IMG/VR virus record: IMGVR_UViG_2529293216_000012
Source: a virus
Lineage: Duplodnaviria; Heunggongvirae; Uroviricota; Caudoviricetes
Strand: one strand, 5' to 3'
Length of the DNA stretch: 56,801 bases
Position 1 is the first letter of the stretch. Every line of letters begins with the position of its first letter. The notes below the pieces were generated by a model. That model did not search any database and was not told the origin of the DNA. It was given only the letters and a program-made list of their open reading frames with translations. This document shows positions 1 through 48,225 of the stretch, piece after piece. The position numbers were made by a program, and so were the translations under genes.

Positions 1-1254
1 ATGCTGGAACAAATGGGCATTGCCGCGAAGCAAGCCTCGTATAAATTAGCGCAACTCTCCAGCCGCGAAAAAAATCGCGTGCTGGAAAAAATCGCCGATG
101 AACTGGAAGCACAAAGCGAAATCATCCTCAACGCTAACGCCCAGGATGTTGCTGACGCGCGAGCCAATGGCCTTAGCGAAGCGATGCTTGACCGTCTGGC
201 ACTGACGCCCGCACGGCTGAAAGGCATTGCCGACGATGTACGTCAGGTGTGCAACCTCGCCGATCCAGTGGGGCAGGTAATCGATGGCGGCGTACTGGAC
301 AGCGGCCTGCGTCTTGAGCGTCGTCGCGTACCGCTGGGGGTTATTGGCGTGATTTATGAAGCGCGCCCGAACGTGACGGTTGATGTCGCTTCGCTGTGCC
401 TGAAAACCGGTAACGCGGTGATCCTGCGTGGTGGCAAAGAAACCTGTCGCACTAACGCGGCAACGGTGGTGGTGATTCAGGACGCCCTGAAATCCTGTGG
501 CTTACCGGCGGGTGCCGTGCAGGCGATTGATAATCCTGACCGTGCGCTGGTCAGTGAAATGCTGCGTATGGATAAATACATCGACATGCTGATCCCGCGC
601 GGCGGGGCTGGTTTGCATAAACTGTGCCGCGAGCAGTCGACGATCCCGGTGATCACAGGTGGTATAGGCGTATGCCATATTTATGTTGATGAAAGTGCAG
701 AGATTGCTGAAGCCCTGAAAGTAATCGTCAATGCGAAAACTCAGCGTCCGAGCACATGTAATACGGTAGAAACGTTGCTGGTGAATAAAAACATCGCCTA
801 TAGCTTCCTGCCCGCATTAAGCAAACAAATGGCGGAAAGCGGCGTGACGTTACACGCAGATGCATCTGCGCTGGCGCAGTTGCAGACAGGCCCTGCGAAG
901 GTGGTGGCGGTTAAAGCCGAAGAGTATGACGATGAGTTTCTGTCATTAGATTTGAACGTCAAAATCGTCAGCGATCTTGACGATGCCATCGCCCATATTC
1001 GTGAACACGGCACGCAACACTCCGATGCGATCCTGACCCGCGATATGCGCAACGCCCAGCGTTTTGTTAACGAAGTGGATTCGTCCGCTGTTTACGTTAA
1101 CGCCTCTACGCGTTTTACCGACGGCGGCCAGTTTGGACTGGGTGCGGAAGTGGCGGTAAGCACACAAAAACTCCACGCGCGTGGCCCAATGGGGCTGGAA
1201 GCACTGACCACTTACAAGTGGATCGGCATTGGTGATTACACCATTCGTGCGTAA
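1..1254 (+). CDS. proA: gamma-glutamyl phosphate reductase (proline biosynthesis), complete 417 aa
   Basis: Full-length ORF; translation recognised as enterobacterial ProA ([20 protein letters not shown]... aldehyde dehydrogenase fold). Confidence 0.96.
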
Positions 1255-1368
1255 ATAAAACCGGGTGATGCAAAAGTAGCCGTTTGATTCACAAGGCCAT
1301 TGACGCATCGCCCGGTTAGTTTTAACCTTGTCCACCGTGATTCACGTTCGTGAACATGTCCTTTCAGG

Positions 1369-1444
1369 GCCGATATAGCTCAGTTGGTAGAGCAGCGCAT
1401 TCGTAATGCGAAGGTCGTAGGTTCGACTCCTATTATCGGCACCA
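1369..1444 (+). tRNA. thrW: tRNA-Thr (anticodon CGU)
   Basis: 76 nt GCCGATATAGCTCAGTTGGTAGAGCAGCGCATTCGTAATGCG...GGTTCGACTCCTATTATCGGCACCA; canonical D-loop, T-arm and CCA; lies directly downstream of proA as in E. coli. Confidence 0.93.
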
Positions 1445-1458
1445 TTAAAATCAATAAG

Positions 1459-2622
1459 TTACACATCATTAGTACCTTCCTTATTTTTTGACTGGGACAA
1501 ATTTGGGACCGATGGGTTCAGGATCGAGTCTATTTGCCGTGCGTGTTCGGTAAGGTGATTAGGTGCAAGGTGAGCATATCGACGAACCATTTCGATAGAC
1601 TCCCAGCCTCCCATTTCCTGTAACACTGACAACGGGACTCCGGCTTGAACCAGCCAACTTGCCCAGGTGTGTCTCAAGTCGTGAAATCTGAAATCATCAA
1701 TACCAGCCCGTCTCAGCGCCGCTTTCCAGGCTGTGTTTGCGTCATACCGCATCTTCCTTACTGTTGGCGCTTTCGTTCCGTCTGGTTTGGTACAGCTTTC
1801 CTTGTACACAAATACCCAACGGTGATGATTCCCGATTTGTTTTTTCAATACGCGACATGCAGTATCATTCAGCGCAACGCCAATTGCGCGGTTTGATTTA
1901 CTCTCTTCCGGGTTTATCCATGCCACCCGGCGCTGCATATCTATTTGTTGCCATTCAAGGTTGATGATGTTCGAGCGTCTTAAGCCTGTTGCCAGTGCAA
2001 ATTCAACAACAGACTTTAATGGCTCCGGACATTCATCAATCAGCCTTTGTGCTTCATGGGGCTCCAGCCAGCGGATCCGTTTATTCTTTGGTTGAGGCAC
2101 TTTAATAATTGGTGCCTTATCCAGCATTTTCCATTCACGCTCTGCGGCTCTTAGTAGGGCCTTTATAAATGAAAGATGCGTAGCCTTCGTTGCAACGGAC
2201 GCTGGTTTTGGCGTGTATTCTGGAACAGGTTTCCCTTTTTTTCTGCATGCTTCTGCCCTGAGTTTCCAGTTTTCCTCATGACGCCGGTTCGTCATTTTCT
2301 GCATTGCTGAATAAATTTTTGATTCAGTAATGTCTCTTAGTTGCATTCCTGCGAAATGTTGAAGCCAGAATCCGATCCGGCTTTTGTCATCGTCCAGCGA
2401 TTTTTTATGTGCTTTCTCTTCAAGCCACCTGACACACGCTTCCTCGAACGTTATATCAGGTATTTCACCAAGTTTGCTGACCCGCCATGCTTCAGCCTTT
2501 AGCTTGTCATGGAGTTCTGTCGCCTGCCTTTTGTCCTTTGTTCCAAGAGACTGTTTAAATCTTTTACCGTTCGGCAATGTGAAACTGGCGTACCATATTT
2601 CACCTCTGCGGAAGAGTGACAT
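1459..2622 (-). CDS. int: phage tyrosine integrase, P22/SfV type (thrW-specific)
   Basis: 387 aa, [21 protein letters not shown]... with C-terminal [16 protein letters not shown]...RYAHL catalytic region; stop 15 bp from the tRNA-Thr 3' end. Confidence 0.93.
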
Positions 2623-2849
2623 TTTCTTTCCTCTGTTATGCCATCACCCGCGCTCACCTGGACAGTATGCAGCGGAGACTGAAGAGCCGCAATGCAGGCT
2701 TGTCGTGTTGTGAGGTAAGGAGATTTATTCTTAGTGGGATCTTTGCGTGTTGCCTGAAGACGCCCTGTGCGTATCCAGTTAATGGCAGTCGGTCTGGATA
2801 TCTTGAGAAAATGACAGGCCTCATCGAGTGTGAGGCTGTATGGCTCCAT
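2499..2849 (-). CDS. xis: excisionase (P22 Xis-like, 116 aa)
   Basis: Internal Met of track ORF 2499..2933 chosen ([31 protein letters not shown]); HTH; overlaps int start as in P22; start overlaps upstream stop (TGATG). Confidence 0.8.
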
Positions 2850-3154
2850 TATTTCACCTCTTGTTGTGACATTGTTGAAAAATGGATACCTGCTCGTTGC
2901 TGCCAGACGATCCAACCGAGAGTCATATCCCATGCCATGTATTCGTTATCGCCGTTTTTTGCTCTCCGACGATCTACTAAGTCACCGAAACGCTTTTCCA
3001 TGAATAATTCATAAGCTTCGCGTTCATCTGGTTCTACTTCCAGAGATAGGAGTGCGATTTCATAAGCACGGCGCTCAATATCGTCTCGCACGTCAAGGCT
3101 GCTGATACGCTCTTTAATTTCTTTAATCAGTTCTTTGTCGGTAAAAGTGGTCAT
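2849..3154 (-). CDS. hypothetical lambdoid early-left protein
   Basis: 101 aa ORF translationally coupled to xis and to the upstream ORF; no family recognised. Confidence 0.55.
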   Translation of the reverse strand: MTTFTDKELIKEIKERISSLDVRDDIERRAYEIALLSLEVEPDEREAYELFMEKRFGDLVDRRRAKNGDNEYMAWDMTLGWIVWQQRAGIHFSTMSQQEVK

Positions 3155-3516
3155 TATGCTCCAGCCTCCGGTGCTTTTGGCATTACTGCCCAGTGAGTGA
3201 TATTGACGTTTTCAAGGTCCCCGACCTGAAATGTCCACTGCCATTCTCCGGTTTCTTTTTGTCCCCAGGTGTACCAGAGAGAACGCCAGCCAATTAGCCA
3301 GCCTTCTCCGTTAGCATCGAATAACAAAACACTTTCATTTGCTGGTGGCAGTTCAGTTGACACTGGTATTACTTTGTTTTCCTGTGCTGCACATTTAGCT
3401 TCAAGCGCATCGAATTTACGCACCAGGTATTCAGCATCTGTTTCATTCACTTTCAGATCTCGCGGTACACATCTCCCACGAAGAAACCCTTCCATTTCGA
3501 AAACATTCATGCGCAT
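3154..3516 (-). CDS. hypothetical phage protein, DUF551-like
   Basis: 120 aa, Trp-rich C-terminal region (WLIGWRSLWYTWGQKETGEWQW) typical of DUF551 early-region proteins of lambdoid phages. Confidence 0.55.
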   Translation of the reverse strand: MRMNVFEMEGFLRGRCVPRDLKVNETDAEYLVRKFDALEAKCAAQENKVIPVSTELPPANESVLLFDANGEGWLIGWRSLWYTWGQKETGEWQWTFQVGDLENVNITHWAVMPKAPEAGA

Positions 3517-4070
3517 TTGCGTAACTCCGATAACTCGTTAAAACGTTCCATAAACATCCCGTAGGCATGGCCCGGTGCCTGTGGAATCACTTTGAACATC
3601 TCTGTTGCCGGGATACCTTCCAGTACAGGCCAGAAAGAGCCATCATCAAGCCCGAGATCGCGGCGTTCGGTTGCCAGCATAATGAGATCGGCATATTTCA
3701 CTGGCGTGCTCATAACAGGAGGTAACCCGTATTTCTCACGTATTACGGCGTCTATTTTTTCTTCCATCCGTTTATAGTCAGGAAGAAGTCGTTTCAGTGG
3801 TGCGGGGATGTCCTGGCAATATGCTTCTGTTGCATCATGCATTAAAGCTTCAAAAGCAAATTCCTGTGGCACCAGCTGGCTGCAAAGCACCGCATGTTGG
3901 GCGACACTGTAGAAGTGTGAAAGATGTCCTGCAAAGCGACAGATATTTGAAAGGGAAACCGCGATATCGTTAATAACGATGTCGTCTTTATTTATCCTGT
4001 CATAATAAAAATGCTTCCCGGAAAAAGTTTTAATAAATGACATTTTGTTCTCCACGTATATGCGCTGCAC
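3507..4070 (-). CDS. HD-domain phosphohydrolase (YfbR-like 5'-deoxynucleotidase family)
   Basis: 187 aa with HD motif context (ALMHDATEAYCQDIPAPLK); overlaps the downstream ORF by 10 nt. Confidence 0.65.
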   Translation of the reverse strand: MQRIYVENKMSFIKTFSGKHFYYDRINKDDIVINDIAVSLSNICRFAGHLSHFYSVAQHAVLCSQLVPQEFAFEALMHDATEAYCQDIPAPLKRLLPDYKRMEEKIDAVIREKYGLPPVMSTPVKYADLIMLATERRDLGLDDGSFWPVLEGIPATEMFKVIPQAPGHAYGMFMERFNELSELRKCA

Positions 4071-4183
4071 CGCGCTGAATTCGGGTAAAAGGAAGCCCTC
4101 ACCGTCCGGCGATTATTGAGTCAATTACATTTCCATAAATGCCCCCGTAGGGGCGGTTAGTTTCTCCACAAAACAGAGAAGAA

Positions 4184-4408
4184 CACCTGTAACCAGGTGA
4201 ATCATTTGATACCGACAAGGGTTTTAGTGAAAGGAGGTGAAATCACCTGTAAGATGCTGAAATAAAACAGGTGATGTATACTTCGGACGGAAAACTCTTT
4301 TTGATACCGACTGCTCAACAAATAGTCAAAAGATCAAAAAACGGCGACACATTTGATACTGCTAATTTACCCTTAAAATCTTCTTCAAAACATCTTCAAA
4401 ACATCTTC
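4184..4408. repeat. Mu-like left-end region: repeated transposase-binding-like motifs and a tandem repeat
   Basis: TTTGATACCGAC at 4205-4216 and 4300-4311, TTTGATACTGC at 4352-4362 (spacing about 95 and 50 bp, like Mu L1-L3); palindrome CACCTGTAACCAGGTG at 4184-4199; AAAACATCTTC-type unit x3 at 4375-4408. Confidence 0.45.
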
Positions 4409-4554
4409 AAACTGCCAAAATGCTCACATAATCGATCTAACTATAATCAGTATGATAATCATCATGAATTACTATTCAATAGCGTGATTATCTTGGGATG
4501 AGTCATATGATCTCTATATGTATTTACAGCACCACCTCATGATAGCGATGGCGC

Positions 4555-12272: not shown

Positions 12273-12824
12273 ATGATGAAATTACAACCCATGGGACTAA
12301 AAGGTCGCGCCCCCGCTCATGTCCGTCCGTGGACACCTGAAGAAGATGCGCTGCTGATTGCGCTTTATTCATCCACCCCGGTTAAGGATATTGCTGCCAG
12401 AATAAAAAGAACTGTCTGGGCTGTATATAACCGGACTGGTGTATTGCGCAGTTCATACCCGGAGTTACTGAAATATAAACACCCAAGATTTACACCTGAT
12501 GAAGATAAGTTTATTCGAAAAAATGCCAGAACAATGACCTGCCAGCAAATGGGAGAATATCTCGGACGTAATAAAGATTCTGTCAGATGTCGGGCAGGAA
12601 TGATTGGTGCTGGATTAACAAAGTGCGGAGAGTTACGCCCCGGCACGCGCATATCTGATGATGATGTACGTCTTATACGTGCGCTGCGTGATTCCGATTA
12701 CCCACGCCGTCTGTCATTCCGGGAAATTGGCGAAAAGTTTGGAATATCTGAACATTCTGCTCACGCAGTTTATTACCGTCGCCGGACTGCCGAGGACGCT
12801 GTATTACGGGAGTTAACGCCATGA
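12273..12824 (+). CDS. hypothetical DNA-binding protein with two Myb/SANT-like repeats and a C-terminal HTH
   Basis: 183 aa; RPWTPEEDALLIALY and RFTPDEDKFIRKN repeats, then LSFREIGEKFGISEHSAHAVYYRR. Confidence 0.55.
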   Translation: MMKLQPMGLKGRAPAHVRPWTPEEDALLIALYSSTPVKDIAARIKRTVWAVYNRTGVLRSSYPELLKYKHPRFTPDEDKFIRKNARTMTCQQMGEYLGRNKDSVRCRAGMIGAGLTKCGELRPGTRISDDDVRLIRALRDSDYPRRLSFREIGEKFGISEHSAHAVYYRRRTAEDAVLRELTP

Positions 12825-13006
12825 TAAAGAGACTTGTATTTTTCGCAATTTTCGTTCCGGTGTTGGGGGGTGGTTTTATATTTGCGATTACAGGAAACCT
12901 GTCCATGATGCCAGATATTTGGTTCTTTATCAGGATGTCGCTCTTCCTGTTTATTATGAATCTTCTTATCGACATATATATCCGTATTACTGGAAAACAT
13001 AAATGA
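12821..13006 (+). CDS. small hydrophobic protein (two predicted TM helices)
   Basis: 61 aa, strongly hydrophobic (LVFFAIFVPVLGGGFIFAI / FFIRMSLFLFIMNLLI); overlaps neighbours by 4 nt; AT-rich. Confidence 0.45.
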   Translation: MIKRLVFFAIFVPVLGGGFIFAITGNLSMMPDIWFFIRMSLFLFIMNLLIDIYIRITGKHK

Positions 13007-13377: not shown

Positions 13378-13567
13378 TCTACCCGCTGGATGGGCGCGCC
13401 CTCTGATGGCTAAGAAGCATCATTTTTTTAAAACTGGCGATAATATCAGTATATGTAGGCGGTGGTTATATCTGGCTCATAATCGCGAGCCGGATACATT
13501 TGAAAGCCCTGATGACTGTGCCGAATGTCGCAGAAGACTGAATAAGGAGAAAGATAATGGACAATAG
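13370..13567 (+). CDS. small hypothetical protein with Cys pairs (possible zinc ribbon)
   Basis: 65 aa; ICRRW...DDCAECRRR; overlaps neighbours. Confidence 0.4.
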   Translation: MNSLPAGWARPLMAKKHHFFKTGDNISICRRWLYLAHNREPDTFESPDDCAECRRRLNKEKDNGQ

Positions 13568-13853
13568 TTCTCTGTTGTTCTGGTGCTTATATATCACATC
13601 CTTTTTCGGCGCATTTGTTATTACCCGGTGGTTATGTCGAAAAATCATCTGCTTTTTTGATAAAAGACATCTGGTTGAACGGGCGGCTGATGCGCTCATT
13701 CAGCAGGCCATTGTGTTATATAGCGGTGAATTTTTCTGCCGGATAACAACCAGAGATGGCTGGCACATAATGATTATTCCACCAACACACCATGCCCGGT
13801 GGGATGAGGCAGAAAAGGCTTTCCATGTCCGTAAAAAGGTAAATACGGTATGA
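13557..13853 (+). CDS. hypothetical protein with N-terminal TM helix
   Basis: 98 aa; LLFWCLYITSFFGAFVI hydrophobic N-terminus; overlaps the gemA-like start. Confidence 0.45.
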   Translation: MDNSSLLFWCLYITSFFGAFVITRWLCRKIICFFDKRHLVERAADALIQQAIVLYSGEFFCRITTRDGWHIMIIPPTHHARWDEAEKAFHVRKKVNTV

Positions 13854-14359
13854 GAGGAAAACTGATATCCGCCATTCATGTGGCAAAGCGCGAGCTTGCC
13901 CTGGATGATGAGACTTATACATCCGCGCTGCTGGCAGCCACCGGCAAAACCAGCTGCCGGGATATGTCACCGGATGAGTTATCCCGCGTGCTGGATGTTT
14001 TCAAAAAACGCGGTTTTAAAGTGCGTCAGAACCCGGTTAACCGGGCCTTAAAACCGGGTACGGTGACCGCCAAAATTCGCGCCATCTGGAAGGTGATGCA
14101 CCGGCAGGGCTTTATCACCGATGGTGCGGAAACCGCCCTTAACCGCTGGGTGAAATCGCAGACGGCCGCGCAAAACGGCGGCGAAGGTGTGGCAAACTGG
14201 CAGTGGCTGGAGCAACACCCCGCCCTGGCCTCAGATGTGCTGGAGCGTCTCAAGCGATGGCACCGCCGCAAAATGCTGGCCGCGATGGGAATGCCCGAAC
14301 GCACGCTGATGGGGTATGACGCCGTTTGCAGGCAGTATGAAAAATCACTTCCCCGTTAA
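13850..14359 (+). CDS. gemA: Mu GemA/gp16-like regulatory protein (DUF1018)
   Basis: 169 aa; position immediately before mor and similarity to Mu gp16. Confidence 0.75.
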   Translation: MRGKLISAIHVAKRELALDDETYTSALLAATGKTSCRDMSPDELSRVLDVFKKRGFKVRQNPVNRALKPGTVTAKIRAIWKVMHRQGFITDGAETALNRWVKSQTAAQNGGEGVANWQWLEQHPALASDVLERLKRWHRRKMLAAMGMPERTLMGYDAVCRQYEKSLPR

Positions 14360-14363
14360 CTCC

Positions 14364-14394
14364 AAATCCCGCCACAACGCGGGATTTTTATTTT
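14364..14394 (+). terminator. rho-independent terminator-like hairpin between gemA and mor
   Basis: ATCCCGC-cacaac-GCGGGAT 7-bp stem (14366-14385) followed by TTTTTATTTT. Confidence 0.5.
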
Positions 14395-14428
14395 AAACTT
14401 ACCGGGAACGCGAGAACCGGAGGCTGAT

Positions 14429-14854
14429 ATGGCAGAAACTCAGATGAGCATGTTTGGTGGTGACAGTGAGCAACTGCACGCCCTTATCGACCGCCTTGAT
14501 GACATCCCTGATGATGTTCTCAAAAAGAACTGGCCGCGGACCCTGTCAGAACTGGTTGAAGTCACCGGCGCAGAACTTCAGCGTCAGGGGATTGAGCCGG
14601 TACTGGCCGGTAAACTGGCACGCAAGGTGGCTGCGGCTCAGGCAGCCTATATGGGCGGACGGGGTTATTACCTGCCGGTCGGGGAATCTCTCTTTGCCGA
14701 GCTGCGAAACAATGAGATATTTTCGCGCTGGGACCGGGGCGAGAAAATTGAATCCCTTCGCCGCCATTACCGGATGTCAGAAACCCAGATTTATACCGTC
14801 ATACGCGAACAGCGCCGTCTGCATCTGGCAAGAACGCAACCGCCACTTTTCTGA
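14429..14854 (+). CDS. mor: Mor/C-family transcriptional activator
   Basis: 141 aa; C-terminal HTH (YRMSETQIYTVIREQRR) typical of Mu Mor/C; precedes the lysis and late genes. Confidence 0.82.
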   Translation: MAETQMSMFGGDSEQLHALIDRLDDIPDDVLKKNWPRTLSELVEVTGAELQRQGIEPVLAGKLARKVAAAQAAYMGGRGYYLPVGESLFAELRNNEIFSRWDRGEKIESLRRHYRMSETQIYTVIREQRRLHLARTQPPLF

Positions 14855-14925
14855 TATTCCGCAAAGCCTGCCGCCTCTCCTTCACCGTTACGCTGACTCA
14901 GAGAACATCATGAGACAGCGTAACA

Positions 14926-15426
14926 ATGCCAAAACTCCCCGCACCACTGCGTAAAAAGCTGATTGCCCTTGTTCTGGCCGGTGCCGGGACGTTCACGATT
15001 GCCACGCATTACACCGGTTACTGGGAAGGGAAAGAAAACTCCACGTATATCGATCCCACCGGTACACCCACCATCTGTTACGGCCATACCGGCCCGGATG
15101 TGAAACCGGGTATGACCCTGACAGATGAAGAATGCCTGGAACTACTGGAAAAGGACATGAAATGGGCCTTTGCGGCCATTGATCGGCGTGTTCAGGTGCC
15201 GCTTACCCGTGGTCAGACGGTGGCGCTGGCTTCGTGGATCTTCTGGGCCGGTGAAACGAACTTTCGCAACTCCACGCTTCTGCGCCTGATCAATGCCGGG
15301 CAGATGCCCGCGTCCTGTAAGCAGTATATCCGCTGGATTTATTCAAAGGGGGTGAAACTCCCCGGCCTTGAGGCCCGCCGTTCGGCGGATGAATGGTTAT
15401 GTCGCTACGACTTGCCGAAAGTCTGA
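14926..15426 (+). CDS. lys: SAR-type endolysin (T4-lysozyme fold, GH24)
   Basis: 166 aa; N-terminal Gly/Ala-rich weakly hydrophobic segment (LIALVLAGAGTFTIA), then catalytic E-8aa-D-5aa-T triad (EGKENSTYIDPTGTPT). Confidence 0.82.
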   Translation: MPKLPAPLRKKLIALVLAGAGTFTIATHYTGYWEGKENSTYIDPTGTPTICYGHTGPDVKPGMTLTDEECLELLEKDMKWAFAAIDRRVQVPLTRGQTVALASWIFWAGETNFRNSTLLRLINAGQMPASCKQYIRWIYSKGVKLPGLEARRSADEWLCRYDLPKV

Positions 15427-15499
15427 ACCGCTTCTGGCGACCGCTCATGATAGCGCTGCTGTGTGCGGTACTGCTGTTACGGGGTGTCCTGTGGCTGCG

Positions 15500-15889
15500 G
15501 TGAATAATGCCTTACCGGCCCTGATTGCCGGGGCGTGCATGGCGGCGCTGGGGATTATCGCTGTACTGGTTGCCGCTATATGGGGAATGCACCAGAAGAC
15601 GCAGCGCCTTGAAGACAATAATCAGGTGCTTGTGCGTGAGCGGGATGAGGCGCGTCAGGTGCTGGCAAATCAGCAGCACACCCTGCAACTCATTTCACAA
15701 ATCAGTGAGGCGGCCACGAATGAAAAACAACAGAACATTCAGCACAGCGAGGGGCAGCAGAGCGTTGTCCGCCGGTCGCTGGCGGCAGTGCCTGCGGCCT
15801 CTGCCCCTGTTCCTGATGATGTGGCTGATCGGGTGCGCCGGGCCGTCTGTGAAATACGTGCCTGTGAAGCCGGTGCCGATCCCCGCTGA
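15500..15889 (+). CDS. i-spanin (Rz-like), start uncertain
   Basis: Track ORF 15368..15889; N-terminal TM (LPALIAGACMAALGIIAVLVAAIW) then coiled-coil-like periplasmic domain; GTG at 15500 chosen, GTG 15491 or ATG 15389 also possible. Confidence 0.5.
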   Translation: MNNALPALIAGACMAALGIIAVLVAAIWGMHQKTQRLEDNNQVLVRERDEARQVLANQQHTLQLISQISEAATNEKQQNIQHSEGQQSVVRRSLAAVPAASAPVPDDVADRVRRAVCEIRACEAGADPR

Positions 15890-16091
15890 ATGGCTGGCTG
15901 ACTGCCTGGTCCCTCCTGCGCCGGAGCCGTTCACGTTTGGGGCATCGGTCACTTACAACCTGCAACTGCTGGCGGTGATCAAGAACTGCAACGTGGACAA
16001 GGCCAGTATTCGTCGTCTGGAGGCGCGGCGACAACATGAATTTACTGATATGGCCGGAACGCCTGCTGTTCCGGCAGGAAAGACGAAGTAA
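15720..16091 (+). CDS. o-spanin (Rz1-like lipoprotein) in the +1 frame overlapping the i-spanin
   Basis: Internal ATG of track ORF 15525..16091 with GAGG RBS; lipobox LIGC, Pro-rich mature part (VKYVPVKPVPIPAEW...PPAPEP); extends past the i-spanin stop. Confidence 0.5.
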   Translation: MKNNRTFSTARGSRALSAGRWRQCLRPLPLFLMMWLIGCAGPSVKYVPVKPVPIPAEWLADCLVPPAPEPFTFGASVTYNLQLLAVIKNCNVDKASIRRLEARRQHEFTDMAGTPAVPAGKTK

Positions 16092-16101
16092 GGAAAAAGG
16101 T

Positions 16102-16329
16102 ATGGATGATTCAGATCGTGCTCAGGCTGTGATGGAGCGGGGATCAGAACGCGCCCTTTGTAACCGGCTGACACGTAAGCGCCGGGCAATGGATGCTCCG
16201 GGCAGACGTGTCTGCGCGGACTGTGGCGGAGAGATCCCCGCCGCACGTCTTGTTGCTGTGCCGGATGCCATCCGTTGTGTGAACTGCCAGAACATCATGG
16301 AGGCCCGTCATGTGGGTCAGCATCGTTAA
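16102..16329 (+). CDS. TraR/DksA-family C4 zinc-finger protein
   Basis: Internal ATG (MDDSDRAQAVMERGSERAL...CADCGGEI...CVNCQ) with AGGAAAAAGG RBS; four-Cys finger typical of phage TraR-like proteins. Confidence 0.7.
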   Translation: MDDSDRAQAVMERGSERALCNRLTRKRRAMDAPGRRVCADCGGEIPAARLVAVPDAIRCVNCQNIMEARHVGQHR

Positions 16330-16618
16330 AGATTATGTTGTGCCGATCCTTTCGGCGACGGCAACCGCTGGCGGGATATTCATGGCGCTGATGCGCAAAA
16401 CGTTTGTCCCCCGCGAGGCCTTTGAAAAACTCTCCGACCGCGTTGAGAAGGTGGAAACCCGCCTGTCGTCACTGCCGACAGAAGCCGAGGTCAACCGTCT
16501 GAATGTGGAAATCGTGACCCTGCGGGGTGAACTGAAAACCACGAACGCCACGCTCCGCTCTGTCTCCTATCAGAACGAACTGCTGCTGGAGCAGGCTGTA
16601 AGGAAAAAAACGCAATGA
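16310..16618 (+). CDS. DUF2730-like membrane protein, candidate Mu gp25-type releasin
   Basis: 102 aa; N-terminal TM (VVPILSATATAGGIFMALM) then helical domain; last gene of the lysis cassette as in Mu. Confidence 0.45.
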   Translation: MWVSIVKDYVVPILSATATAGGIFMALMRKTFVPREAFEKLSDRVEKVETRLSSLPTEAEVNRLNVEIVTLRGELKTTNATLRSVSYQNELLLEQAVRKKTQ

Positions 16619-16905
16619 GTGATTTCATTACTGAAGATCAGCGTCTGGTCATTCTGCGGTCGCTGGCAGATTACAACGGTGAACTGGGTGAATCCGTGCT
16701 CCAGGACTGTCTGGATGATTACGGCCACCGCGTGTCCCGCGACACCGTTCACACCCACATTGCCTGGCTTGCCGAGCAGGGACTGGTGCGTAAGCGCACG
16801 CTCGTTAACGGTTATTTCATCGCCGAACTGACCGGCCGGGGTCAGGATGTGGCGGAAGGTCGCGCCAGCGTTCCGGGTGTGAAGAAACCACGCGCAAGGG
16901 GGTAA
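16615..16905 (+). CDS. hypothetical Mu-like late protein
   Basis: 96 aa, translationally coupled between the lysis cassette and the packaging genes. Confidence 0.5.
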   Translation: MSDFITEDQRLVILRSLADYNGELGESVLQDCLDDYGHRVSRDTVHTHIAWLAEQGLVRKRTLVNGYFIAELTGRGQDVAEGRASVPGVKKPRARG

Positions 16906-16907
16906 CG

Positions 16908-17489
16908 ATGGACAAGCCGACGCGTGGACGCGTGCGCAAGGTGGATTTGCTCCCCGACAGCATCCGTAAGCCACTGCTGGAAATGCTGCGTGAAAAACGT
17001 CTGACGCAGGTCCAGATACGCGAGGAAATCAACCGTCTGATCCGTGAGGCGGGCCTGCCGGAAGAGCAGCAGCTTTCACCGGCGGCCATCAGCCGGGAAG
17101 CCTCCCGTAATGAGCTGATTGCCCGTAACCTGCGTGATTTACGCGAGCAGACAAAAGCCATGATGGCCGAACTGGGAGACAAGCCAACCGGTGAAACCAC
17201 AGCGCTGATTCTGGAGATGTCCCGCGCCCTGATGTACCGCCGTCTGCGTGCCGCGACCGAATCCCTGAACAGTGACAGCGACGTGGATATGCGTCTTATT
17301 AAGGACATCCTCCTGTCAGCACAGCGTGCGGAAAGTGCCGCCGAGCGCAGCATTAAGCGTGAAAAAGAAATCCGGGCTGCATTTGCTGAAGAGATGGCAA
17401 ACGCCGTCACCGACGAGCTGCGCGGCGTGGACGGGATGAGTGAACAGCTTGAGTCCCGTATTAAGGGGATTCTGTTGGGTAAAGCCTGA
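16908..17489 (+). CDS. Mu gp27-like protein (DUF3486; terminase small subunit candidate)
   Basis: 193 aa, basic N-terminus with HTH-like segment, immediately upstream of the large terminase. Confidence 0.65.
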   Translation: MDKPTRGRVRKVDLLPDSIRKPLLEMLREKRLTQVQIREEINRLIREAGLPEEQQLSPAAISREASRNELIARNLRDLREQTKAMMAELGDKPTGETTALILEMSRALMYRRLRAATESLNSDSDVDMRLIKDILLSAQRAESAAERSIKREKEIRAAFAEEMANAVTDELRGVDGMSEQLESRIKGILLGKA

Positions 17490-37106: not shown

Positions 37107-37559
37107 GTGATTTATATGAATGAATATGTTTATAGCGCAAGGCATAATGCTTTTTTCCCTGTGGATATGATTGATAAATATAAATCAGAGGGATGGGATT
37201 TATCAGACGCTAAGGAAGTAAATCAAAATATTATCAGTGAGTTTATGGCTGAACCGCCACAAGGAAAAATCCGTATTGCCGGAGATGATGGGCTGCCTGC
37301 GTGGGCAGATATTCCTCCACCCACGCATGAAGAACTTATTGAAATTACTGAATCAGAAAGACAGCTACTAATTAACCAGGCCAACGAATACATGAACAGT
37401 AAACAATGGCCCGGTAAAGCCGCTATTGGTCGTCTGAAAGGTGAGGAACTGGCGCAATATAATTTGTGGCTGGATTATCTGGATGCACTGGAGCTGGTTG
37501 ATACCTCCAGTGCGCCAGATATTGAATGGCCTACGCCTCCGGCAGTTCAGGCCAGATGA
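37107..37559 (+). CDS. tail fibre assembly protein (Mu U-like)
   Basis: 150 aa; C-terminal motif LDYLDALELVDTSSAPDIEWPTPP typical of tail fibre assembly chaperones. Confidence 0.85.
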   Translation: MIYMNEYVYSARHNAFFPVDMIDKYKSEGWDLSDAKEVNQNIISEFMAEPPQGKIRIAGDDGLPAWADIPPPTHEELIEITESERQLLINQANEYMNSKQWPGKAAIGRLKGEELAQYNLWLDYLDALELVDTSSAPDIEWPTPPAVQAR

Positions 37560-38133
37560 CATCCGGCGCGGTGCTGGTATCTGTTGCCGTCACCGCGTCA
37601 ATGTAATCCAGCACAGCGTTAAGTCTGGTTGTTTCTGCCTGCGTCGGTTTACGTCCGGCCTGCAATTTCAGTTGAATCAGACTGATGGAAGCCATTGCTG
37701 CATCAATCAGTGACTGGCGCTGTGCTTCTGCCGCTTCTACTGCGGCACCGTGTTGTGCCTCAGTATCTGTCACCCATTTTTCACCATCCCATTTATCGAA
37801 TGGCGTTAACGGGGCGATAGTGGTTGTATTTTCAGGATAATCACCCGGAGCTGTGATTTCTTTGGCGTCTCCCGTTTCGGTGTTATAGACGATTTCACCG
37901 CGATGGTCTGGCACATATTCCCATGAGTTTAAATCCATCGAACGGCAGATAGCATAACCCGCCTTATGTATACCAGGTTCATCCAGACAGGAATATGCAG
38001 GGATACCGACACCAATGGCAAGATATTCATTTGAAGTAGAAATATATTCCCGAGTTTTACCATCATAGTTATAGACGGTAATATTCCCCGCCTTCGTGGC
38101 AATAAGCTCGCTATTTAATACGGCGTTATCCAT
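37531..38133 (-). CDS. tail fibre assembly protein of the second (minus-strand) tail module
   Basis: 200 aa; C-terminus LDYIDAVTATDTSTAPDVIWPELPEA; 3' end overlaps the plus-strand assembly gene by 29 bp. Confidence 0.85.
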   Translation of the reverse strand: MDNAVLNSELIATKAGNITVYNYDGKTREYISTSNEYLAIGVGIPAYSCLDEPGIHKAGYAICRSMDLNSWEYVPDHRGEIVYNTETGDAKEITAPGDYPENTTTIAPLTPFDKWDGEKWVTDTEAQHGAAVEAAEAQRQSLIDAAMASISLIQLKLQAGRKPTQAETTRLNAVLDYIDAVTATDTSTAPDVIWPELPEA

Positions 38134-38903
38134 TATGCAGCCCTCACGATATAGTTAAATGCAATATTTCGTGGACGGGTTTCACTCCCGCCAGTATTAC
38201 CGATACTCCCTCGTGAATGAAGTGTCGGTGATGGGATCAGACTCCCTCCTGTATTTGTGGCATCAAGTCCCCGTCCTTGTGTGTATGTCTTTTTGAAAAT
38301 CGTAGCCAGTTCCCATTCATCTTTTGTGTCGTAACCATCATTGGCAACAACAATATGGCGGTGTTTTTCCAGCATCCCTGTCTGAATGCTCAATAAAACA
38401 CGTCCTGCATCAATACCGCGCCCGTCATCCCAGCCACGAATAAACTCACCACGTAAATCAGGCAATTTATTTGTCGGATAAGCCTTTGCCAGTTCCGGGT
38501 ATTCTTCAGCAGAAAAAGCCGCACCGTTGCATTTCAGCCAGCCTGTTGGCGGTGTGGCTGAAGGCCATGGAACAGGCACACCAACAGGTAATGCAGAGCC
38601 TTCTCCCAAACCAAGGTTTTCGAGAGCCGTTTGCACAGTGCCATCCGATTTGATATCGCCAAACGGATTCTTGCGGCTTAACAGCAGCGCGCGAAGTGCG
38701 GTAAGTAACTGGTCGTGCCGCCCCTTCTCCAGGCTGGCACCGGATGCCTCCACCACGCTGCAAAGTTCCTCCTGCAACATGTCAAAGTAGTCATCATCCA
38801 GATCGGTGGCAGGCGTGCCGGTCTGGGGGTTACCACGGGTAAAACCGTTCTTACCCGCGCCGAACTTATCCTTCTGCGCGGTTTTCGTGTCTATACGATG
38901 CAT
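38133..38903 (-). CDS. tail fibre protein with phage tail-collar domain
   Basis: 256 aa; own ATG 4 nt after the gp48-like stop; collar motif [53 protein letters not shown]. Confidence 0.85.
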
Positions 38904-38906
38904 GGA

Positions 38907-39491
38907 TTACTCCGGATATTTAAAAATTACGTAGGTTTGCGACGGGCAGAGTTTGTTAAGCACACACTCGACAACGGTGTCACCCCAGATACGCAGTGCG
39001 GAATCACAGGGATCGCCACATGTCATCCAGGTGGAGTTGGTGGTGGCTGGCATGTTGACCTGCCAGTAATACCGCCATTCCGGCGCATTCACCGCGTCAG
39101 TACAGGCCGATGAGCAGGTGAAAGTGCTTTTGTCGTATCGCGTGATGGTGGCATCTGGTCTGCCCAGGGCAGCAAGCTGTGCAAGATAAAAATCCTCGTT
39201 GATGCCGCCCGCCAGGTTAACCTTCGCATCCAGCCGTTGCTGACGCTGGCGAAGGGTCTGCGTTCCCGCCGGAATACATTCATCCGGCAGACCGCACAGA
39301 CGCTCCCAGCGGTTTATCAGTTCAGTGGTGGTGCGAGGATCCAGCTCCCGCATCAGGGCATCCGCACGCTGATGAACACGGGTTAATGACGGTGCCGCAC
39401 CGGCAATCGCCGGATCGCTGGCTGACCACGCCGGACCGGGCGGCAACAGTGCCGATAACAGGCGGATGTAATCATCGTTTGTCACGTCCAT
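38907..39491 (-). CDS. Mu gp48-like tail protein (second tail module)
   Basis: 194 aa; homologous in length and motifs to plus-strand 35633..36193. Confidence 0.78.
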
Positions 39492-40540
39492 GAAATCGTC
39501 CCCAGTACCGCCAGTTCGTTTTTCGCAATGGAGATATTGTCCACCGGTGCAAGCAACTGATGGCTGTATTCCCCGTTCGCACCGGAAATCGCCTCACTGA
39601 TACGCGATACCTTGAGTTCTCCCTGCGGATAACCATCACGCAGCAGGAACGAACGCAACTCCGCGGTAATGGCAGCCCGTATTTCCGGTGTGTCCGGCGT
39701 CACGCGGATATGAAAATCCACTTTATGCGCCACCGGCCTGAATACATACAAATCAGAGCCTGCCACCGGGGCCAGTGGCTCAATGTGTTGTCTTGCCGCC
39801 GTTTCCGTTGATTCTTCCGGAATGGGATTAATCAGGTCACTGCTGGCAATCATCACACCGACAGTTCCCGTTCCCATCCAGTGACGGTATGTCCATGCGC
39901 GGGTAATGCCGGGCACTTCTTTAGCCCAGACAACATAGTCCCCGTCAGCCCCGCCCTGAGGCGTCCAGTAATACCGCTCAATGACGCGGGCGCGCCACGT
40001 TTCCAGATCTTCAGTATCGAATCCGCCAGTCAGGGTATCTGCAACACCGGAAGACGGCAGACCATTCACCGGCGTGACCAGGATTAATGCCGTACCGTCG
40101 TCAGCGTTACCGACCGCGCCTGCACTTGAGCAGGCGATCGGCACGCGCAGGACACCACCGGAGCTGGTTGCATCAGCAGTTGCCGTGTACTGAACCAGGT
40201 CATCGCGCTGAATCACGCTCCCGGCGGTCACCTTCAGGCCATCGCTGACACCTTCCCAGCGCATATACCCGCTGGCAGCCGTGGCCCCCTTGCGCGGACA
40301 CCGTTTCATCGCAGCATGTCGCGCCAGCCAGGACTCATCGCACAGGTCAGGCAGCATGTTCATTGCCAGATAATCGATGTAACCGTAAACCGTATGCAGC
40401 GCCGCCGCATACACCTTTGCCCGCACGTCTTCATCCATGCGCCGGAGCGTGTCGCTGACGTCCAGCCTGGCGAATAAATCGTTACGGAGCATACTGATAT
40501 TTTCTGCCAGCGTCGGGCGCTGAAATTCACTGTCCGCCAT
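39482..40540 (-). CDS. baseplate J-like protein (second tail module)
   Basis: 352 aa; conserved order. Confidence 0.85.
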
Positions 40541-40955
40541 GCGTTATCGCACTCCACAGATCATCAAAAGAAATCATTACCGGTCCGTCACGACGCCAGA
40601 GGGTGATACTGTTACCCAGCTCATTAATCCCGGTGCGGCGGATATCCAGATCAATACGGGACACCACGCCGTCATCAATCATCCATTGCAGGCATTCGCG
40701 GATATACCCCCTTACTGTCTGCACCAGCTGATTGGTCAGTTTGCTGCGCTGAAGCAGCCACAGTCGTGAGCCGTAACGGTCATTCTGTACCGCAGGCCAG
40801 GTATCCCCCCACCATCCCATCGGGACGTCGGCGTTGTCATCAGGCTCCGCCCGCCGCCAGGTAAACAGGGAAATCACCACGGCGCGGGTCAGCGGATCCA
40901 GCGGTGCGCTGGCGCAGGTGCGTTTACCGTTCACCGTCAGCCACAGTTCCATCAT
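40527..40955 (-). CDS. Mu gp46-like baseplate protein (second tail module)
   Basis: 142 aa; WWGDTW motif as in plus-strand gp46. Confidence 0.78.
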   Translation of the reverse strand: MMELWLTVNGKRTCASAPLDPLTRAVVISLFTWRRAEPDDNADVPMGWWGDTWPAVQNDRYGSRLWLLQRSKLTNQLVQTVRGYIRECLQWMIDDGVVSRIDLDIRRTGINELGNSITLWRRDGPVMISFDDLWSAITHGGQ

Positions 40956-41500
40956 GCCTCCATCGCTTTATCCGGTTTGTCGGTGTTACTGCCCTGACCG
41001 TTCTCTCTGTGACGATGCCCGTTATAGGCAAGCCGCATCGCTGACATGGTAGTGCCGCTGGAGTCGCACAGGTCTTTCACCTGTCCTGTCACTTCCAGGT
41101 CCATTTCAAAACGTGCTTTAGGTGAATTGCGAAACGTGATCGTTTTACCTGCACCGTCCACCACGATCCCCTCCCGGGTCAGCGTCACAGACTGCCCCTG
41201 ATCGTCATAGACAGCCACCTCACCCGTCTGCAACCCTTTCAGGCGGTAGCGCCGGTCCGACACCGTAACAACCACCGCATGAGAACGGTCGCCATCCGGA
41301 AACAACACCACCGCTTCCGCGCCGCTGTTTGCCCTTGCGGTAAAACCGTAGGGTTCAAGATGTTCAACCCCGGCTTTGGGTTCACCGGCAATCAGGGACA
41401 CATCCACGGTCTGACATTTCGTGGCGGCACTGATGCTTTTCACCACTGCCCGCGCAATCAGGCCGAGAAGTTGTCGCTGCATGGCTTCAATCGTCCTCAT
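40952..41500 (-). CDS. Mu gp45-like baseplate spike protein (second tail module)
   Basis: 182 aa; conserved order. Confidence 0.78.
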   Translation of the reverse strand: MRTIEAMQRQLLGLIARAVVKSISAATKCQTVDVSLIAGEPKAGVEHLEPYGFTARANSGAEAVVLFPDGDRSHAVVVTVSDRRYRLKGLQTGEVAVYDDQGQSVTLTREGIVVDGAGKTITFRNSPKARFEMDLEVTGQVKDLCDSSGTTMSAMRLAYNGHRHRENGQGSNTDKPDKAMEA

Positions 41501-42579
41501 CAGAACGGGTCCTCCTGTACTCTGGCTTTTTTCTTTTTCCGCGCGCCGGGGGCTTCGGGTTCAGGCAGATAAGCATCAGGCGGGCCGACACGGATTTCCG
41601 TCAGGGTGCCGTTCTGGTCCTGAGTAAACGTGACTTCCGAGACAAGCAGTTCGGTATTGTCGAAACCACAGACTGGATCGAAGACAATCACCCGCTGGTT
41701 GGGCTGCCACAGCGTACCGTTACCCTGTCGCCAGCCCTGCACCACATAGGTGGTTTCATCCGTCCGCGCCGCCCGTTGTCGGGCTTCAAAGTCAGCACGC
41801 GCAATACAGCCTGCCCCCGTGGCCTGCCCTGTCTGCCTGATATACATCGGACGGTAACGGGCAATAAATGCGTCCTCTGTGCGGGCCCGCAGCGCGGTGG
41901 TGGTGACCTCACCGAAATCATCGTCGTTTCCGGCACGCTGCCCCGCCACCTGGTAAACAGAAAACCGCTCCCGGATACTCTTCTCCGTATCACAGGAAAG
42001 GATGTTTTCCCCAAGTACCAGCGCGGTATGTGCCCGCGTTGAGCCAATACCGCCAATCACCAGCCTGCCGTGCGGATCGTCGTAAGCCAGCGCCTGCTGC
42101 TGACCGAGTATTTTGTTGATAACCTCAATCACCGTTTCACCGTGATCAGGCTGAACATCAGGAATAACACCCGACGGCGCACCGCTGTTCACCACCTCAA
42201 TGCCGAAAGGCGCAGCAAGCGCCTGCGCAATCTGCACCAGCGAGCGTCCGTTAAACTGTGTCGGTTCGGCTGCACAGTCAATCAGGTCAGCCGTCAGACT
42301 ACGTCCGGCAATACCGGTGCTGACCGAACGGGCATCGTAACGAACGGGAGTCGCCTCCACCCAGCCGGTGATCACCAGCTCATCACCAATCAGCACTTCC
42401 ACTTTTGAACCGTTTTTAATGCGCGGCTGAAGCGTGGTGATACCCTCATCTCCCGGCCACTGGCGAGTGATCTCCACACTGAAATCCCGCGCCAGCCGTT
42501 CAATACCGGCACCGATGCGCACCGATGTCCAGCCATTCCACTCCCGGCCATTTACCCGTAGCGTGACATTGTCGTTCAT
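41500..42579 (-). CDS. Mu P-like baseplate hub protein (second tail module)
   Basis: 359 aa; N-terminus MNDNVTLRVNGREWNGW parallels plus-strand P. Confidence 0.82.
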   Translation of the reverse strand: MNDNVTLRVNGREWNGWTSVRIGAGIERLARDFSVEITRQWPGDEGITTLQPRIKNGSKVEVLIGDELVITGWVEATPVRYDARSVSTGIAGRSLTADLIDCAAEPTQFNGRSLVQIAQALAAPFGIEVVNSGAPSGVIPDVQPDHGETVIEVINKILGQQQALAYDDPHGRLVIGGIGSTRAHTALVLGENILSCDTEKSIRERFSVYQVAGQRAGNDDDFGEVTTTALRARTEDAFIARYRPMYIRQTGQATGAGCIARADFEARQRAARTDETTYVVQGWRQGNGTLWQPNQRVIVFDPVCGFDNTELLVSEVTFTQDQNGTLTEIRVGPPDAYLPEPEAPGARKKKKARVQEDPF

Positions 42580-43904: not shown

Positions 43905-43964
43905 ATAAACTCCGTACATAAAAAATCCCACCGGAGTGGGACTCATTAACAGATTAATTTTTCA

Positions 43965-45800: not shown

Positions 45801-45941
45801 GTGTGCGTTTCTCCTGCTCTATCCTGTTTGCCTGACTGACCAGCAAGGGAATTTCACTGATCGGCATATTCAGCAATTCGAAAGGATTAATGCGCCAGTA
45901 GCTGGCGCAGTCAAAGAAGCGATCAGTGAGGTATTCAGCCG

Positions 45942-46211
45942 TCAGGCCTGGAGGAAAAAACCAGCCACAAGCCACGCCGCTGCATTCAGGTCTGCCGGAG
46001 ACATCTGGTCGACAGAGCTTTGCGGCACTTTCGCCAGCCGCACAATGTATTTCGACACCACATGCGCCAGAAGTCTGACTGACTCATCCTGATTCATCTG
46101 GTAGGGATACCCCAGCTCGCGGACATCCTTCCCGGTGGGTTCATCAAACTCCAGTACGGAGAGTGTCTCGCCATGAGCAGTAATCGGTTTCTTTAACTCA
46201 AGCTCTTTCAT
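45942..46211 (-). CDS. tail assembly chaperone (second tail module)
   Basis: 89 aa between tube and tape measure; overlapped at its 3' end by an ORF in another frame (45787..45975). Confidence 0.6.
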   Translation of the reverse strand: MKELELKKPITAHGETLSVLEFDEPTGKDVRELGYPYQMNQDESVRLLAHVVSKYIVRLAKVPQSSVDQMSPADLNAAAWLVAGFFLQA

Positions 46212-46567
46212 TACTGGTAATCCCCTTCTTCACCGTGGAACTCAAGATCAACCGTGCCTTCTTCGGCATTATGGTTCGCTTCGCCGTGCAGCCAGGCAGA
46301 CGACAGTACATAGACCTGACCGTTCGCCAGCTCGGCAGTGATGGTCATCTCATCAGACGAGGTGATTTTGCTTACCGGAAAATTCTTCGGCACCTTGAAG
46401 GTCCCTTTGACATAAGGCGCACGGTGAGTTTCCTTGCGGTCCACTGAACCGTCCAGGCCGATGATGTCATCGTTAACCGTTTTGTTCATGGGCACCTCAA
46501 TGCCGCCGGTCAGCGATAGCTGCTGACCGTCAATTTTGAAATAACAGGTTCCCCCGATACGGGCCAT
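46211..46567 (-). CDS. tail tube protein (second tail module)
   Basis: 118 aa directly after the sheath. Confidence 0.85.
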   Translation of the reverse strand: MARIGGTCYFKIDGQQLSLTGGIEVPMNKTVNDDIIGLDGSVDRKETHRAPYVKGTFKVPKNFPVSKITSSDEMTITAELANGQVYVLSSAWLHGEANHNAEEGTVDLEFHGEEGDYQ

Positions 46568-48217: not shown

Positions 48218-48225
48218 GAGGATCC

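Follow-up and report, generated by a model that had tools for sequence, protein, structure and literature searches.

A Mu-type lysis cassette with a probable additional micro-gene in a diverged, widespread Mu-like prophage

The window analyzed here is the whole 56,801-nt viral sequence of IMG/VR record IMGVR_UViG_2529293216_000012 (Caudoviricetes). Positions 14926-16618 form the late lysis cassette of an Sp18-type Mu-like prophage and are 99.5% identical, across the cassette, to Sp18 of Escherichia coli O157:H7 Sakai. A first-pass annotation had described five open reading frames (ORFs) in this interval, encoding an endolysin of the signal-anchor-release (SAR) type, a pair of overlapping spanins (i-spanin and o-spanin), a TraR/DksA zinc-finger protein, and a DUF2730-like membrane protein. 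All five were found where it placed them, on the plus strand, and the gene identities are backed both by profiles and by pairwise homology to, and synteny with, gp22, gp23, gp23.1, and gp25 of phage Mu, subject to the corrections given below. The Mu reference was the curated record AF083977, in which gp22 is the SAR endolysin, gp23 the i-spanin, Mu_55 (gene 23.1) the o-spanin, and gp25 the releasin. Alignment with these proteins gave identities of 39% for gp22 (E = 9e-35), 27% for gp23, 42% for gp23.1, and 34% for gp25 (over 93 residues, E = 5e-18), and synteny extended across Mu genes 21, 22, 23, 23.1, 24, 25, 26, and 27. The locus is a lysis cassette of the Mu type, largely ordinary, carried by a Mu-like prophage that is both diverged and widespread; the additions made here are corrected start codons, a conserved long o-spanin signal peptide, support for the SAR assignment, a histidine-free DUF2730 variant, and a conserved micro-gene.

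The endolysin gene (14926..15426, +) encodes a 166-residue SAR-type lysozyme of family GH24 (PF00959, E = 6e-37; phrog_7). Its catalytic residues, E34-x8-D43-x5-T49, form the E-8-D-5-T triad recognized in the first pass and are intact and invariant in 43 homologues. At the N terminus, the cytoplasmic tail MPKLPAPLRKK, with basic residues K3, R9, K10, and K11, is followed by LIALVLAGAGTFTIAT. The weakly hydrophobic segment occupies residues 12-27 (nt 14959-15006); G, A, S, or T account for 9 of its 16 residues, and its 19-residue Kyte-Doolittle (KD) mean is 1.39, compared with 2.3-2.6 for true transmembrane domains (TMDs) such as those of the i-spanin and of the micro-ORF described below. This composition, together with homology to Mu gp22 and to R21 of phage 21, bears out the earlier view of a Gly/Ala-rich segment of the SAR type.

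The closest solved structure by sequence is full-length R21 (3HDE), whose SAR character was demonstrated by experiment. The alignment begins at residue 5 and spans the SAR domain, and the two proteins share a P-x-x-L-R-K motif followed by a G/A-rich segment in collinear arrangement. An AlphaFold2 model of the endolysin, built with 43 sequences, had a mean pLDDT (predicted local distance difference test) of 94 and placed residues 6-17 and 22-34 in two helices packed on the catalytic domain (pLDDT 95-97). In Foldseek comparisons, the model matched full-length R21 and the DLP12 endolysin (4ZPU) over 161 columns, with TM scores of 0.84-0.85 and a root-mean-square deviation of 2.0 Å; the match to inactive R21 lacking the SAR domain (3HDF) was poorer (TM 0.59). 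Every one of the 43 homologues has an extension of 21-33 residues before the catalytic Glu that contains a G/A/S/T-rich hydrophobic 16-mer. Within the Sp18-type clade (relatives 63-82% identical), conservation is 64-82% in the 11-residue basic tail and 63-83% in the catalytic domain; a tail conserved as strongly as the catalytic domain is unlike the n-region of a generic signal peptide. Collectively, these structural predictions and comparisons favor an uncleaved SAR domain.

The DUF2730 gene (16310..16618, +) encodes a releasin-like protein of 102 residues (phrog_736). Its match to PF10805 (71.4 bits; cut-off 24.9) is full-length, with residues 6-97 aligned to profile positions 3-101 of 102, N-terminal TMD included. 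Eight residues precede the TMD (approximately residues 9-28), which is followed by an R29-K30 junction and a helical cytoplasmic domain of 74 residues; the N-out/C-in topology is predicted from the positive-inside rule only. With the micro-ORF counted, the gene is the fifth after the endolysin, and gp26- and gp27-like genes come next, as in Mu. The full-length family match and the synteny agree with the earlier description of a DUF2730-like protein with one N-terminal transmembrane helix at the position of Mu gp25, and the name releasin given there for gp25 is correct (PMC9239132). Judged by its sequence, the protein would qualify as a releasin. Mu gp25 is the sole releasin examined by experiment so far, and models of its mechanism have been proposed. 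Chamblee et al. (2022) reported that Mu gp22 needs gp25 owing to two basic residues beside its SAR domain, that gp25 is of help to further SAR endolysins as well, and that Mu lacks a holin (PMC9239132). The DUF2730 protein of the window is ~34% identical both to Mu gp25 and to Vibrio phage DUF2730 proteins that accompany GH108 endolysins, so its assignment to type I of Chamblee et al. is not exclusive; because it is equally similar to these GH108-paired proteins, the role of the family may exceed SAR endolysin release.

The i-spanin gene (15491..15889, +) matches the Rz-like spanin family phrog_214 (E = 8e-33). Its product has a TMD at residues 6-35 (KD 2.6-2.8) and two cysteines, C120 and C125, close to the C terminus. 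The earlier identification of this gene holds through the phrog_214 match and the homology to Mu gp23, but the start codon is GTG 15491 and not one further upstream. GTG 15491 was taken as the start since sister lineages (the Citrobacter-type lineage and L103) have ATG as the aligned codon. Upstream of 15491, the ratio of nonsynonymous to synonymous changes (pN/pS) in the i-spanin frame is 2.97, like that of an off-frame reading. An N-terminal extension from ATG 15389, or from the GTG at 15461 chosen by the Prokaryotic Genome Annotation Pipeline (PGAP), was rejected on this ratio and on the alignment of the sister-lineage start with 15491. PGAP itself chooses 15461 for identical genomes and 15491 for diverged ones. 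The records of NZ_CP028695.1 and of many further RefSeq genomes name the i-spanin (15461-15889) "endopeptidase" and start it too early, and in them the o-spanin ("LysC", 15849-16091) starts past the lipobox Cys and is truncated; the Sakai annotation leaves the o-spanin out entirely.

The o-spanin gene (15720..16091, +) encodes a lipoprotein of 123 residues (PF23793 LysC, E = 2e-16; phrog_3001, E = 8e-42). Its frame is +1 with respect to the i-spanin gene, with which it shares 170 nt, and it ends 202 nt past the i-spanin stop. The lipobox LIGC supplies Cys39 (nt 15834-15836), with Ala at +2, and 11 of the 84 mature residues are Pro. An overlapping +1-frame o-spanin with this lipobox had been proposed in the first pass and was recovered in each particular. 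ATG 15720 had also been called the only in-frame ATG. M33 and M34 are ATG codons too, but they lie inside the h-region, which leaves 15720 as the sole usable one. It is preceded by GAGG 9 nt upstream, and in each of the six lineages examined the lipobox Cys comes exactly 38 codons after it; because the first ATG keeps this distance in all six, the 38-residue signal peptide that had seemed unusually long is a conserved feature and not an annotation artifact. ATG 15720 also forms part of a conserved i-spanin motif, and the fact that it is conserved therefore does not count as independent evidence. The signal peptide is very basic (+7), with seven basic residues among the first 26. A shorter o-spanin from TTG 15765, with a 24-residue signal peptide and its own upstream GAGG, was rejected because that start codon is confined to the E. 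coli lineage. A frameshifted o-spanin in Sakai Sp18 was likewise discounted, as the 1-nt length difference falls in an A-run after the stop codon.

The next gene (16102..16329, +) encodes a 75-residue C4 zinc-finger protein of the TraR/DksA family. In line with the family proposed in the first pass, it matches PF01258 and phrog_54, exceeds the cut-off of TIGR02419 (77.8 bits; cut-off 59.7), and has the four cysteines of the finger (C38-x2-C41, x17, C59-x2-C62). The gene occupies the position of Mu gp24. Its product resembles gp24 only in the CxxC...CxxC pattern (E = 0.015), and gp24 was not recognized as TraR in Pfam. By position, the TraR-family protein belongs to the cassette. Nothing indicates a lysis role, and it probably modulates host RNA polymerase rather than lysis. 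The TraR-DUF2730 adjacency is also seen in lineages L122-L125 and in Klebsiella phage Kp4866-3 (OK490420, 7906-13193; L121). In place of a SAR endolysin, the latter has a GH108-type enzyme, which is cytoplasmic, together with multi-TMD proteins (one of them gp19-like), and it retains the TraR-DUF2730-gp26 order; because this order is kept there, the pairing of TraR and DUF2730 is more conserved than the type of endolysin. In the Citrobacter/Salmonella-type locus L034 (4160-4458), and likewise in L035 and L040, an extra ORF of ~98 residues (MTEPTQTQNAGIAAAS...) lies between the o-spanin and TraR genes.

Directly 5' of the endolysin gene, at the position of Mu gene 21, is a gene for a Mor/C-family transcription activator (14429..14854, +; PF08765, E = 3e-32). 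Its product is 39% identical to Mu C (E = 4e-35) compared with 27% to Mu Mor, and it is the single Mor/C-family gene between gemA and the endolysin gene; a separate mor and the gp18-gp20 block found in Mu are both missing. The C-like protein is the probable activator of the late (lysis) promoter. Because the activator is nearer to Mu C than to Mor, the intergenic region between it and the endolysin gene (14855..14925, +), which includes the endolysin ribosome-binding site, is the positional equivalent of Mu Plys, and we infer that it may hold a C-dependent late promoter. CCGCAA and GTTAC-CT blocks in this region are kept across lineages (alignment A2). A scan of 14300-17600 for sigma-70 consensus promoters found none, a result that is uninformative for an activator-dependent promoter and is expected for the same reason. 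A terminator-like hairpin followed by a T-run (14364-14387, +) lies directly after gemA and before the C-like activator gene.

Between the endolysin and i-spanin genes is an unannotated micro-ORF, s36 (MVMSLRLAESLNRFWRPLMIALLCAVLLLRGVLWLR; 15393..15503, +), which lies inside the cassette and was missed in the first pass. Its overlap with the 3' end of the endolysin gene is 34 nt long, and that with the i-spanin start 13 nt. The product, of 34-36 residues, has one hydrophobic segment (a single TMD of 13-19 residues) and no charged tail. The frame is conserved and accumulates coding-type substitutions. Of 21 aligned loci, 20 keep it open over 36 codons and the remaining one has indels, and a homologue of 36-37 codons stands at the same place in every further lineage found, which makes at least six prophage lineages in all. 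Apart from the E. coli type, these comprise the Citrobacter/Salmonella type (endolysin identity ~82-84%) and L103, L122, L123/L124, and L125 (63-70%). In the part that overlaps no other gene, pN/pS was 0.54-0.58, compared with 1.0 and 1.7-3.0 in the other two frames. The minimum numbers of changes at codon positions 1, 2, and 3 were 11, 7, and 20 (chi-square on these counts, p ~0.03), and four synonymous codons are in use for each of the invariant residues R16 and L33. At the C terminus, overlap of the invariant LRGVLWL with the i-spanin ribosome-binding site and start codon adds to the conservation. On this pattern of substitutions, the micro-ORF is very probably a real gene.

An internal ATG of the micro-ORF, at 15399, is made by an endolysin Leu codon that in most lineages is always the rare TTA or CTA; in L125, the equivalent start-codon position has GTG. 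Because the rare Leu codon is kept and L125 has GTG, 15399 is the likely start and the likely product has 34 residues. A degenerate motif scan for the micro-ORF returned 31 IMG/VR stretches, all on contigs that carry the Sp18-type endolysin or its DUF2730 gene, and 14 metagenome stretches, all copies of one E. coli-type locus. Against 1.84 billion representative proteins, phmmer returned one true homologue (a 34-residue call) and two repeat artifacts. No family match was found in Pfam, PHROGs, or NCBIfam, and tblastn against phages matched the same prophage only. An origin as a duplicate of the i-spanin TMD and a relationship to Mu gp20 were set aside when BLASTP gave no alignment; Mu gp23 did not match either. 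A programmed frameshift joining the micro-ORF to the i-spanin was rejected because the 13-nt overlap contains no slippery heptamer. In L031 (IMGVR_UViG_2526164665_000023), small indels in the region aligned to window positions 15350-15430 join the last part of the endolysin frame to that of the micro-ORF, and the 192-residue product ends ...SLNRFWRPLMIALLCAVLLLRGVLWLR; a recent mutation, or an error of sequencing or assembly, is the probable cause.

Hydropathy, scanned across every annotated gene of the prophage and the small ORFs of the cassette, identified the weak SAR segment, the i-spanin, the o-spanin signal peptide, and the DUF2730 protein, plus three more: the micro-ORF product and proteins of 61 and 98 residues encoded upstream. 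The 61-residue protein (MIKRLVFFAIFVPVLGGGFIFAITGNLSMMPDIWFFIRMSLFLFIMNLLIDIYIRITGKHK; 12821-13006, +) has two TMDs, a basic N terminus, and a basic C-terminal tail, with a class II holin-like topology (predicted N-in/C-in). It has no family match and is encoded 1.9 kb upstream of the cassette, in the early/middle region upstream of gemA, so that GemA and the hairpin separate it from the late operon. Only Sp18-type prophages of E. coli and Shigella have the protein (16 clusters); in the Citrobacter-type prophage with the same lysis genes, the 3 kb upstream of the endolysin gene do not encode it. As a holin it is a poor candidate, since its distribution is narrow, it maps to the early region, and the sister lineage lacks it. 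The 98-residue protein (13557-13853, +; phrog_17269), encoded directly upstream of gemA, has a single TMD, near its N terminus, followed by a cytoplasmic tail, a layout comparable to that of Lcc6 and other small lysis helpers.

Neither the ORFs of the cassette nor the upstream TMD proteins matched a holin family in Pfam, PHROGs, or NCBIfam, and no ORF in the late cassette has classical holin architecture. To this extent the first-pass description of the cassette as holin-less stands, as a deduction that overlooked the micro-ORF; the prophage also encodes the 61-residue TMD protein upstream. With 34-36 residues and a single hydrophobic stretch of 13-19 residues, the micro-ORF product is below the size of any known holin class. 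A holin-less cassette is the most likely reading, which rests on homology with Mu.

The resemblance to Mu is one of both order and kind. Genes are in the same order and orientation, with a C-type activator upstream and gp26, gp27, and terminase genes downstream. In both systems, the basic tail of the GH24 endolysin leads into a hydrophobic segment rich in G/A, the spanins are overlapped (not embedded) with an o-spanin of the LysC family, and the late operon has no holin-family gene. The two systems also differ, with identities of just 27-42%. Mu lacks the micro-ORF, its gene 23 starting inside the end of gene 22 and leaving no room, and it has the poorly conserved gp24 where the window has a genuine TraR-family zinc finger. 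The o-spanin signal peptide has 38 residues here compared with 28 in Mu, and the SAR segment has 2 Gly, whereas Mu gp22 has six Gly in a seven-residue stretch (PMC9239132). The gp18-gp20 block and separate mor that the window lacks lie in Mu between the genes corresponding to gemA and the C-like gene, and the DUF2730 cytoplasmic domain of the window, net basic and without His, is unlike that of gp25.

Other lysis systems share individual parts with the cassette. R21 of phage 21 and RrrD of DLP12 (3HDE, 3HDF, 4ZPU) are the best sequence and structure matches to the endolysin and have P-x-x-L-R-K in common with it. In these proteins and in the window endolysin, the catalytic Glu comes soon after the hydrophobic segment, and the fold predicted here is that of the full-length active form. 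R21, however, is controlled by an adjacent pinholin (S21 68), whereas the window has no pinholin gene and has a DUF2730 gene instead, and the cytoplasmic tail of the window endolysin is longer and more basic (K3, R9, K10, K11) than that of R21. Like P2 LysB/LysC and lambda Rz/Rz1, the spanins combine an i-spanin that has a TMD at its N terminus and a helical periplasmic domain with an outer-membrane lipoprotein that is small, rich in Pro, and read in the +1 frame (PF23793 LysC; phrog_214, phrog_3001, phrog_456). Their genes are overlapped as in P2 and Mu and not embedded as in lambda, and the unusually long, very basic, length-conserved signal peptide of the o-spanin is unlike those of P2 and lambda. 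Lcc6 of Shewanella phage LambdaSo offers a possible parallel to the micro-ORF product, being a small single-TMD protein that is neither holin, endolysin, nor spanin and yet is needed where lysis employs a SAR endolysin. It differs in being encoded far from the lysis genes and in working with a pinholin, and no sequence relationship between the two was found or expected.

The preferred interpretation, to which a probability of about 0.72 is assigned, is that the cassette is the late lysis operon of an Sp18-type transposable prophage and works as in phage Mu; it draws on sequence comparison and on analogy with Mu and with R21 of phage 21. The C-like activator would switch on a promoter just 5' of the endolysin gene. 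The GH24 endolysin would be exported by Sec and would stay inactive, tethered to the inner membrane via its uncleaved SAR domain, with R9-K10-K11 in the cytoplasmic tail. The DUF2730 protein, with its predicted N-out/C-in TMD and cytoplasmic helical domain, would take the role of releasin. Once released, the endolysin would refold with its N-terminal helices packed on the catalytic domain and degrade murein, and the i-spanin/o-spanin complex would then fuse the inner and outer membranes. The TraR-family protein would be co-transcribed and would probably reprogram host RNA polymerase, with no action in lysis, and a membrane peptide of 34-36 residues would be translated between the endolysin and the i-spanin.

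Several points weigh against this interpretation, and some of them are accommodated by other explanations. Sp18 was not induced by mitomycin C (PMC2669165), which bears on lytic competence. In the endolysin, A18-G19-A20 is a possible -3/-1 site for signal peptidase. If it were used, the N terminus would be an ordinary cleavable Sec signal peptide, the enzyme would be soluble and secreted, and lysis would be controlled elsewhere; the n-h-c layout, with a basic n-region, a hydrophobic LIALVL stretch, and the possible A-x-A at 18-20, fits such a peptide. This explanation is nevertheless very improbable. The N terminus is homologous to and aligned with the SAR domain of R21 and is integral to the predicted fold (pLDDT 95-97), so the only plausible A-x-A cleavage, after residue 20, would cost part of that fold (helix 6-17). 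The hydrophobic segment also ends 6 residues before the catalytic Glu, the tail is conserved as strongly as the catalytic domain, and Mu gp22, 39% identical and of the same layout, was shown experimentally to be a SAR endolysin (PMC9239132). The DUF2730 protein raises a second difficulty. Its cytoplasmic domain is net basic (11 acidic, 14 basic, 5 Ser, no His), the whole protein lacks histidine, and the SHQ motif of Mu gp25 and most Sp18-type relatives is SYQ in this lineage (residue 87). The cytoplasmic domain of Mu gp25 is predominantly anionic and has two His (PMC9239132), a description that carries no established requirement. Moreover, Mu-like phages whose endolysins are cytoplasmic can likewise encode DUF2730 proteins (PMC9239132; Klebsiella phage Kp4866-3), so the role of the family may be broader or different. 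It could be proposed from these facts that DUF2730 has no part in endolysin release and acts in virion morphogenesis or packaging, with the SAR endolysin escaping spontaneously on accumulation. The pairing with non-SAR endolysins in many Mu-like phages (PMC9239132; Kp4866-3), the constant adjacency to TraR and gp26/gp27 genes with terminase genes near, the loss of the SHQ His from a net basic domain, and the equal closeness (~34% each) to GH108-paired Vibrio phage proteins and Mu gp25 all agree with that proposal. It is quite improbable all the same, given full-length homology to Mu gp25, the one DUF2730 protein tested, which was required for lysis (PMC9239132). In addition, the window protein is paired with a gp22-type SAR endolysin whose tail (RKK plus K3) is more basic than that of gp22, and basic tail residues are the feature that creates releasin dependence in Mu (PMC9239132).

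The remaining points against a Mu-like mechanism concern small membrane proteins, of which the prophage has three: the micro-ORF product in the cassette and the 61- and 98-residue proteins upstream. In LambdaSo, the small non-holin TMD protein Lcc6 is essential for lysis (bioRxiv 10.1101/2024.01.23.576932). The cassette might accordingly not be holin-less, with the micro-ORF peptide or the 61-residue protein depolarizing or permeabilizing the inner membrane as a minimal pinholin or holin and the DUF2730 protein serving as an accessory. The conservation of the micro-ORF under purifying selection and its translational nesting between endolysin and i-spanin speak for such a role, as do the class II holin-like arrangement of the 61-residue protein (two TMDs, basic N terminus, and C-terminal tail) and the precedent of Lcc6 as an unexpected small TMD protein. 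This alternative is judged improbable, because the 61-residue protein is encoded in the early/middle region beyond the hairpin at 14364-14387, occurs in E. coli and Shigella only, and is absent from the Citrobacter-type prophage, and the micro-ORF peptide is, as noted, smaller than any known holin class. No holin family matched in Pfam, PHROGs, or NCBIfam, and the extra TMD proteins of Mu, gp19 and gp20, were shown not to be holins (PMC9239132).

The micro-ORF could nonetheless contribute to lysis in another way, and it is the sole element of the cassette, conserved and hitherto unannotated, that could prove to be new biology. A tentative idea, itself rather unlikely, is that its peptide is an unrecognized lysis component of Sp18-type transposable phages. 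As a membrane partner it could hold back the SAR domain or set the time of its release (an "anti-releasin" or co-releasin) and would then supply the timing control otherwise missing from a holin-less system; alternatively, it could be a minimal depolarizing peptide. The micro-gene may take part in holin-independent lysis control.

The cassette is a diverged natural variant (27-42% identity) of the Mu system. The RKK tail of the endolysin, more basic than that of gp22 and strongly conserved, would provide a handle on the rule that basic residues confer releasin dependence. If the DUF2730 protein is functional, its lack of His and its net basic domain argue against the Ser/His/Asp protease and "acidic microenvironment" models for gp25; if it is not functional, the lineage may lyse poorly. 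For annotation, current records of Sp18-type prophages have a truncated o-spanin and a mis-started i-spanin and miss the micro-gene.

The prophage that carries the cassette is common. Its Mu-like region (window ~4.5-37.5 kb) is 100% identical to many E. coli chromosomes. The cassette is carried, intact, by 231 of 5426 complete E. coli genomes (~4%), occurs in several other lineages, and is widespread in Shiga-toxin-producing E. coli. It was also found inside two Shiga toxin (Stx) phage records, where it is labeled "inserted Mu-like phage", and a query of genome contigs with the endolysin returned one locus, in Citrobacter braakii. Apart from the lysis genes, the prophage encodes a Mu transposase, a B-like ATPase, Gam, GemA, the Mor/C-family activator, gp27, a portal protein, and Mu-type head and tail proteins. 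PGAP annotation of an identical E. coli record places a "tRNA-OTHER" at window positions 22059-22138 (-), among the head-morphogenesis genes; ARAGORN run on the window reported no tRNA at 22059-22138.

The Mu-like prophage is nested within another, myovirus-type prophage that is integrated at tRNA-Thr (1369-1444). The integrase gene of the outer prophage (1459-2622, -) follows the tRNA gene, and its myovirus-type tail, capsid, and terminase genes extend from ~37.5 kb to 56 kb (-). Sequence of the outer prophage lies within window positions 1-4500 and 37500-56801, and the Mu-like element appears to have transposed into this resident prophage.

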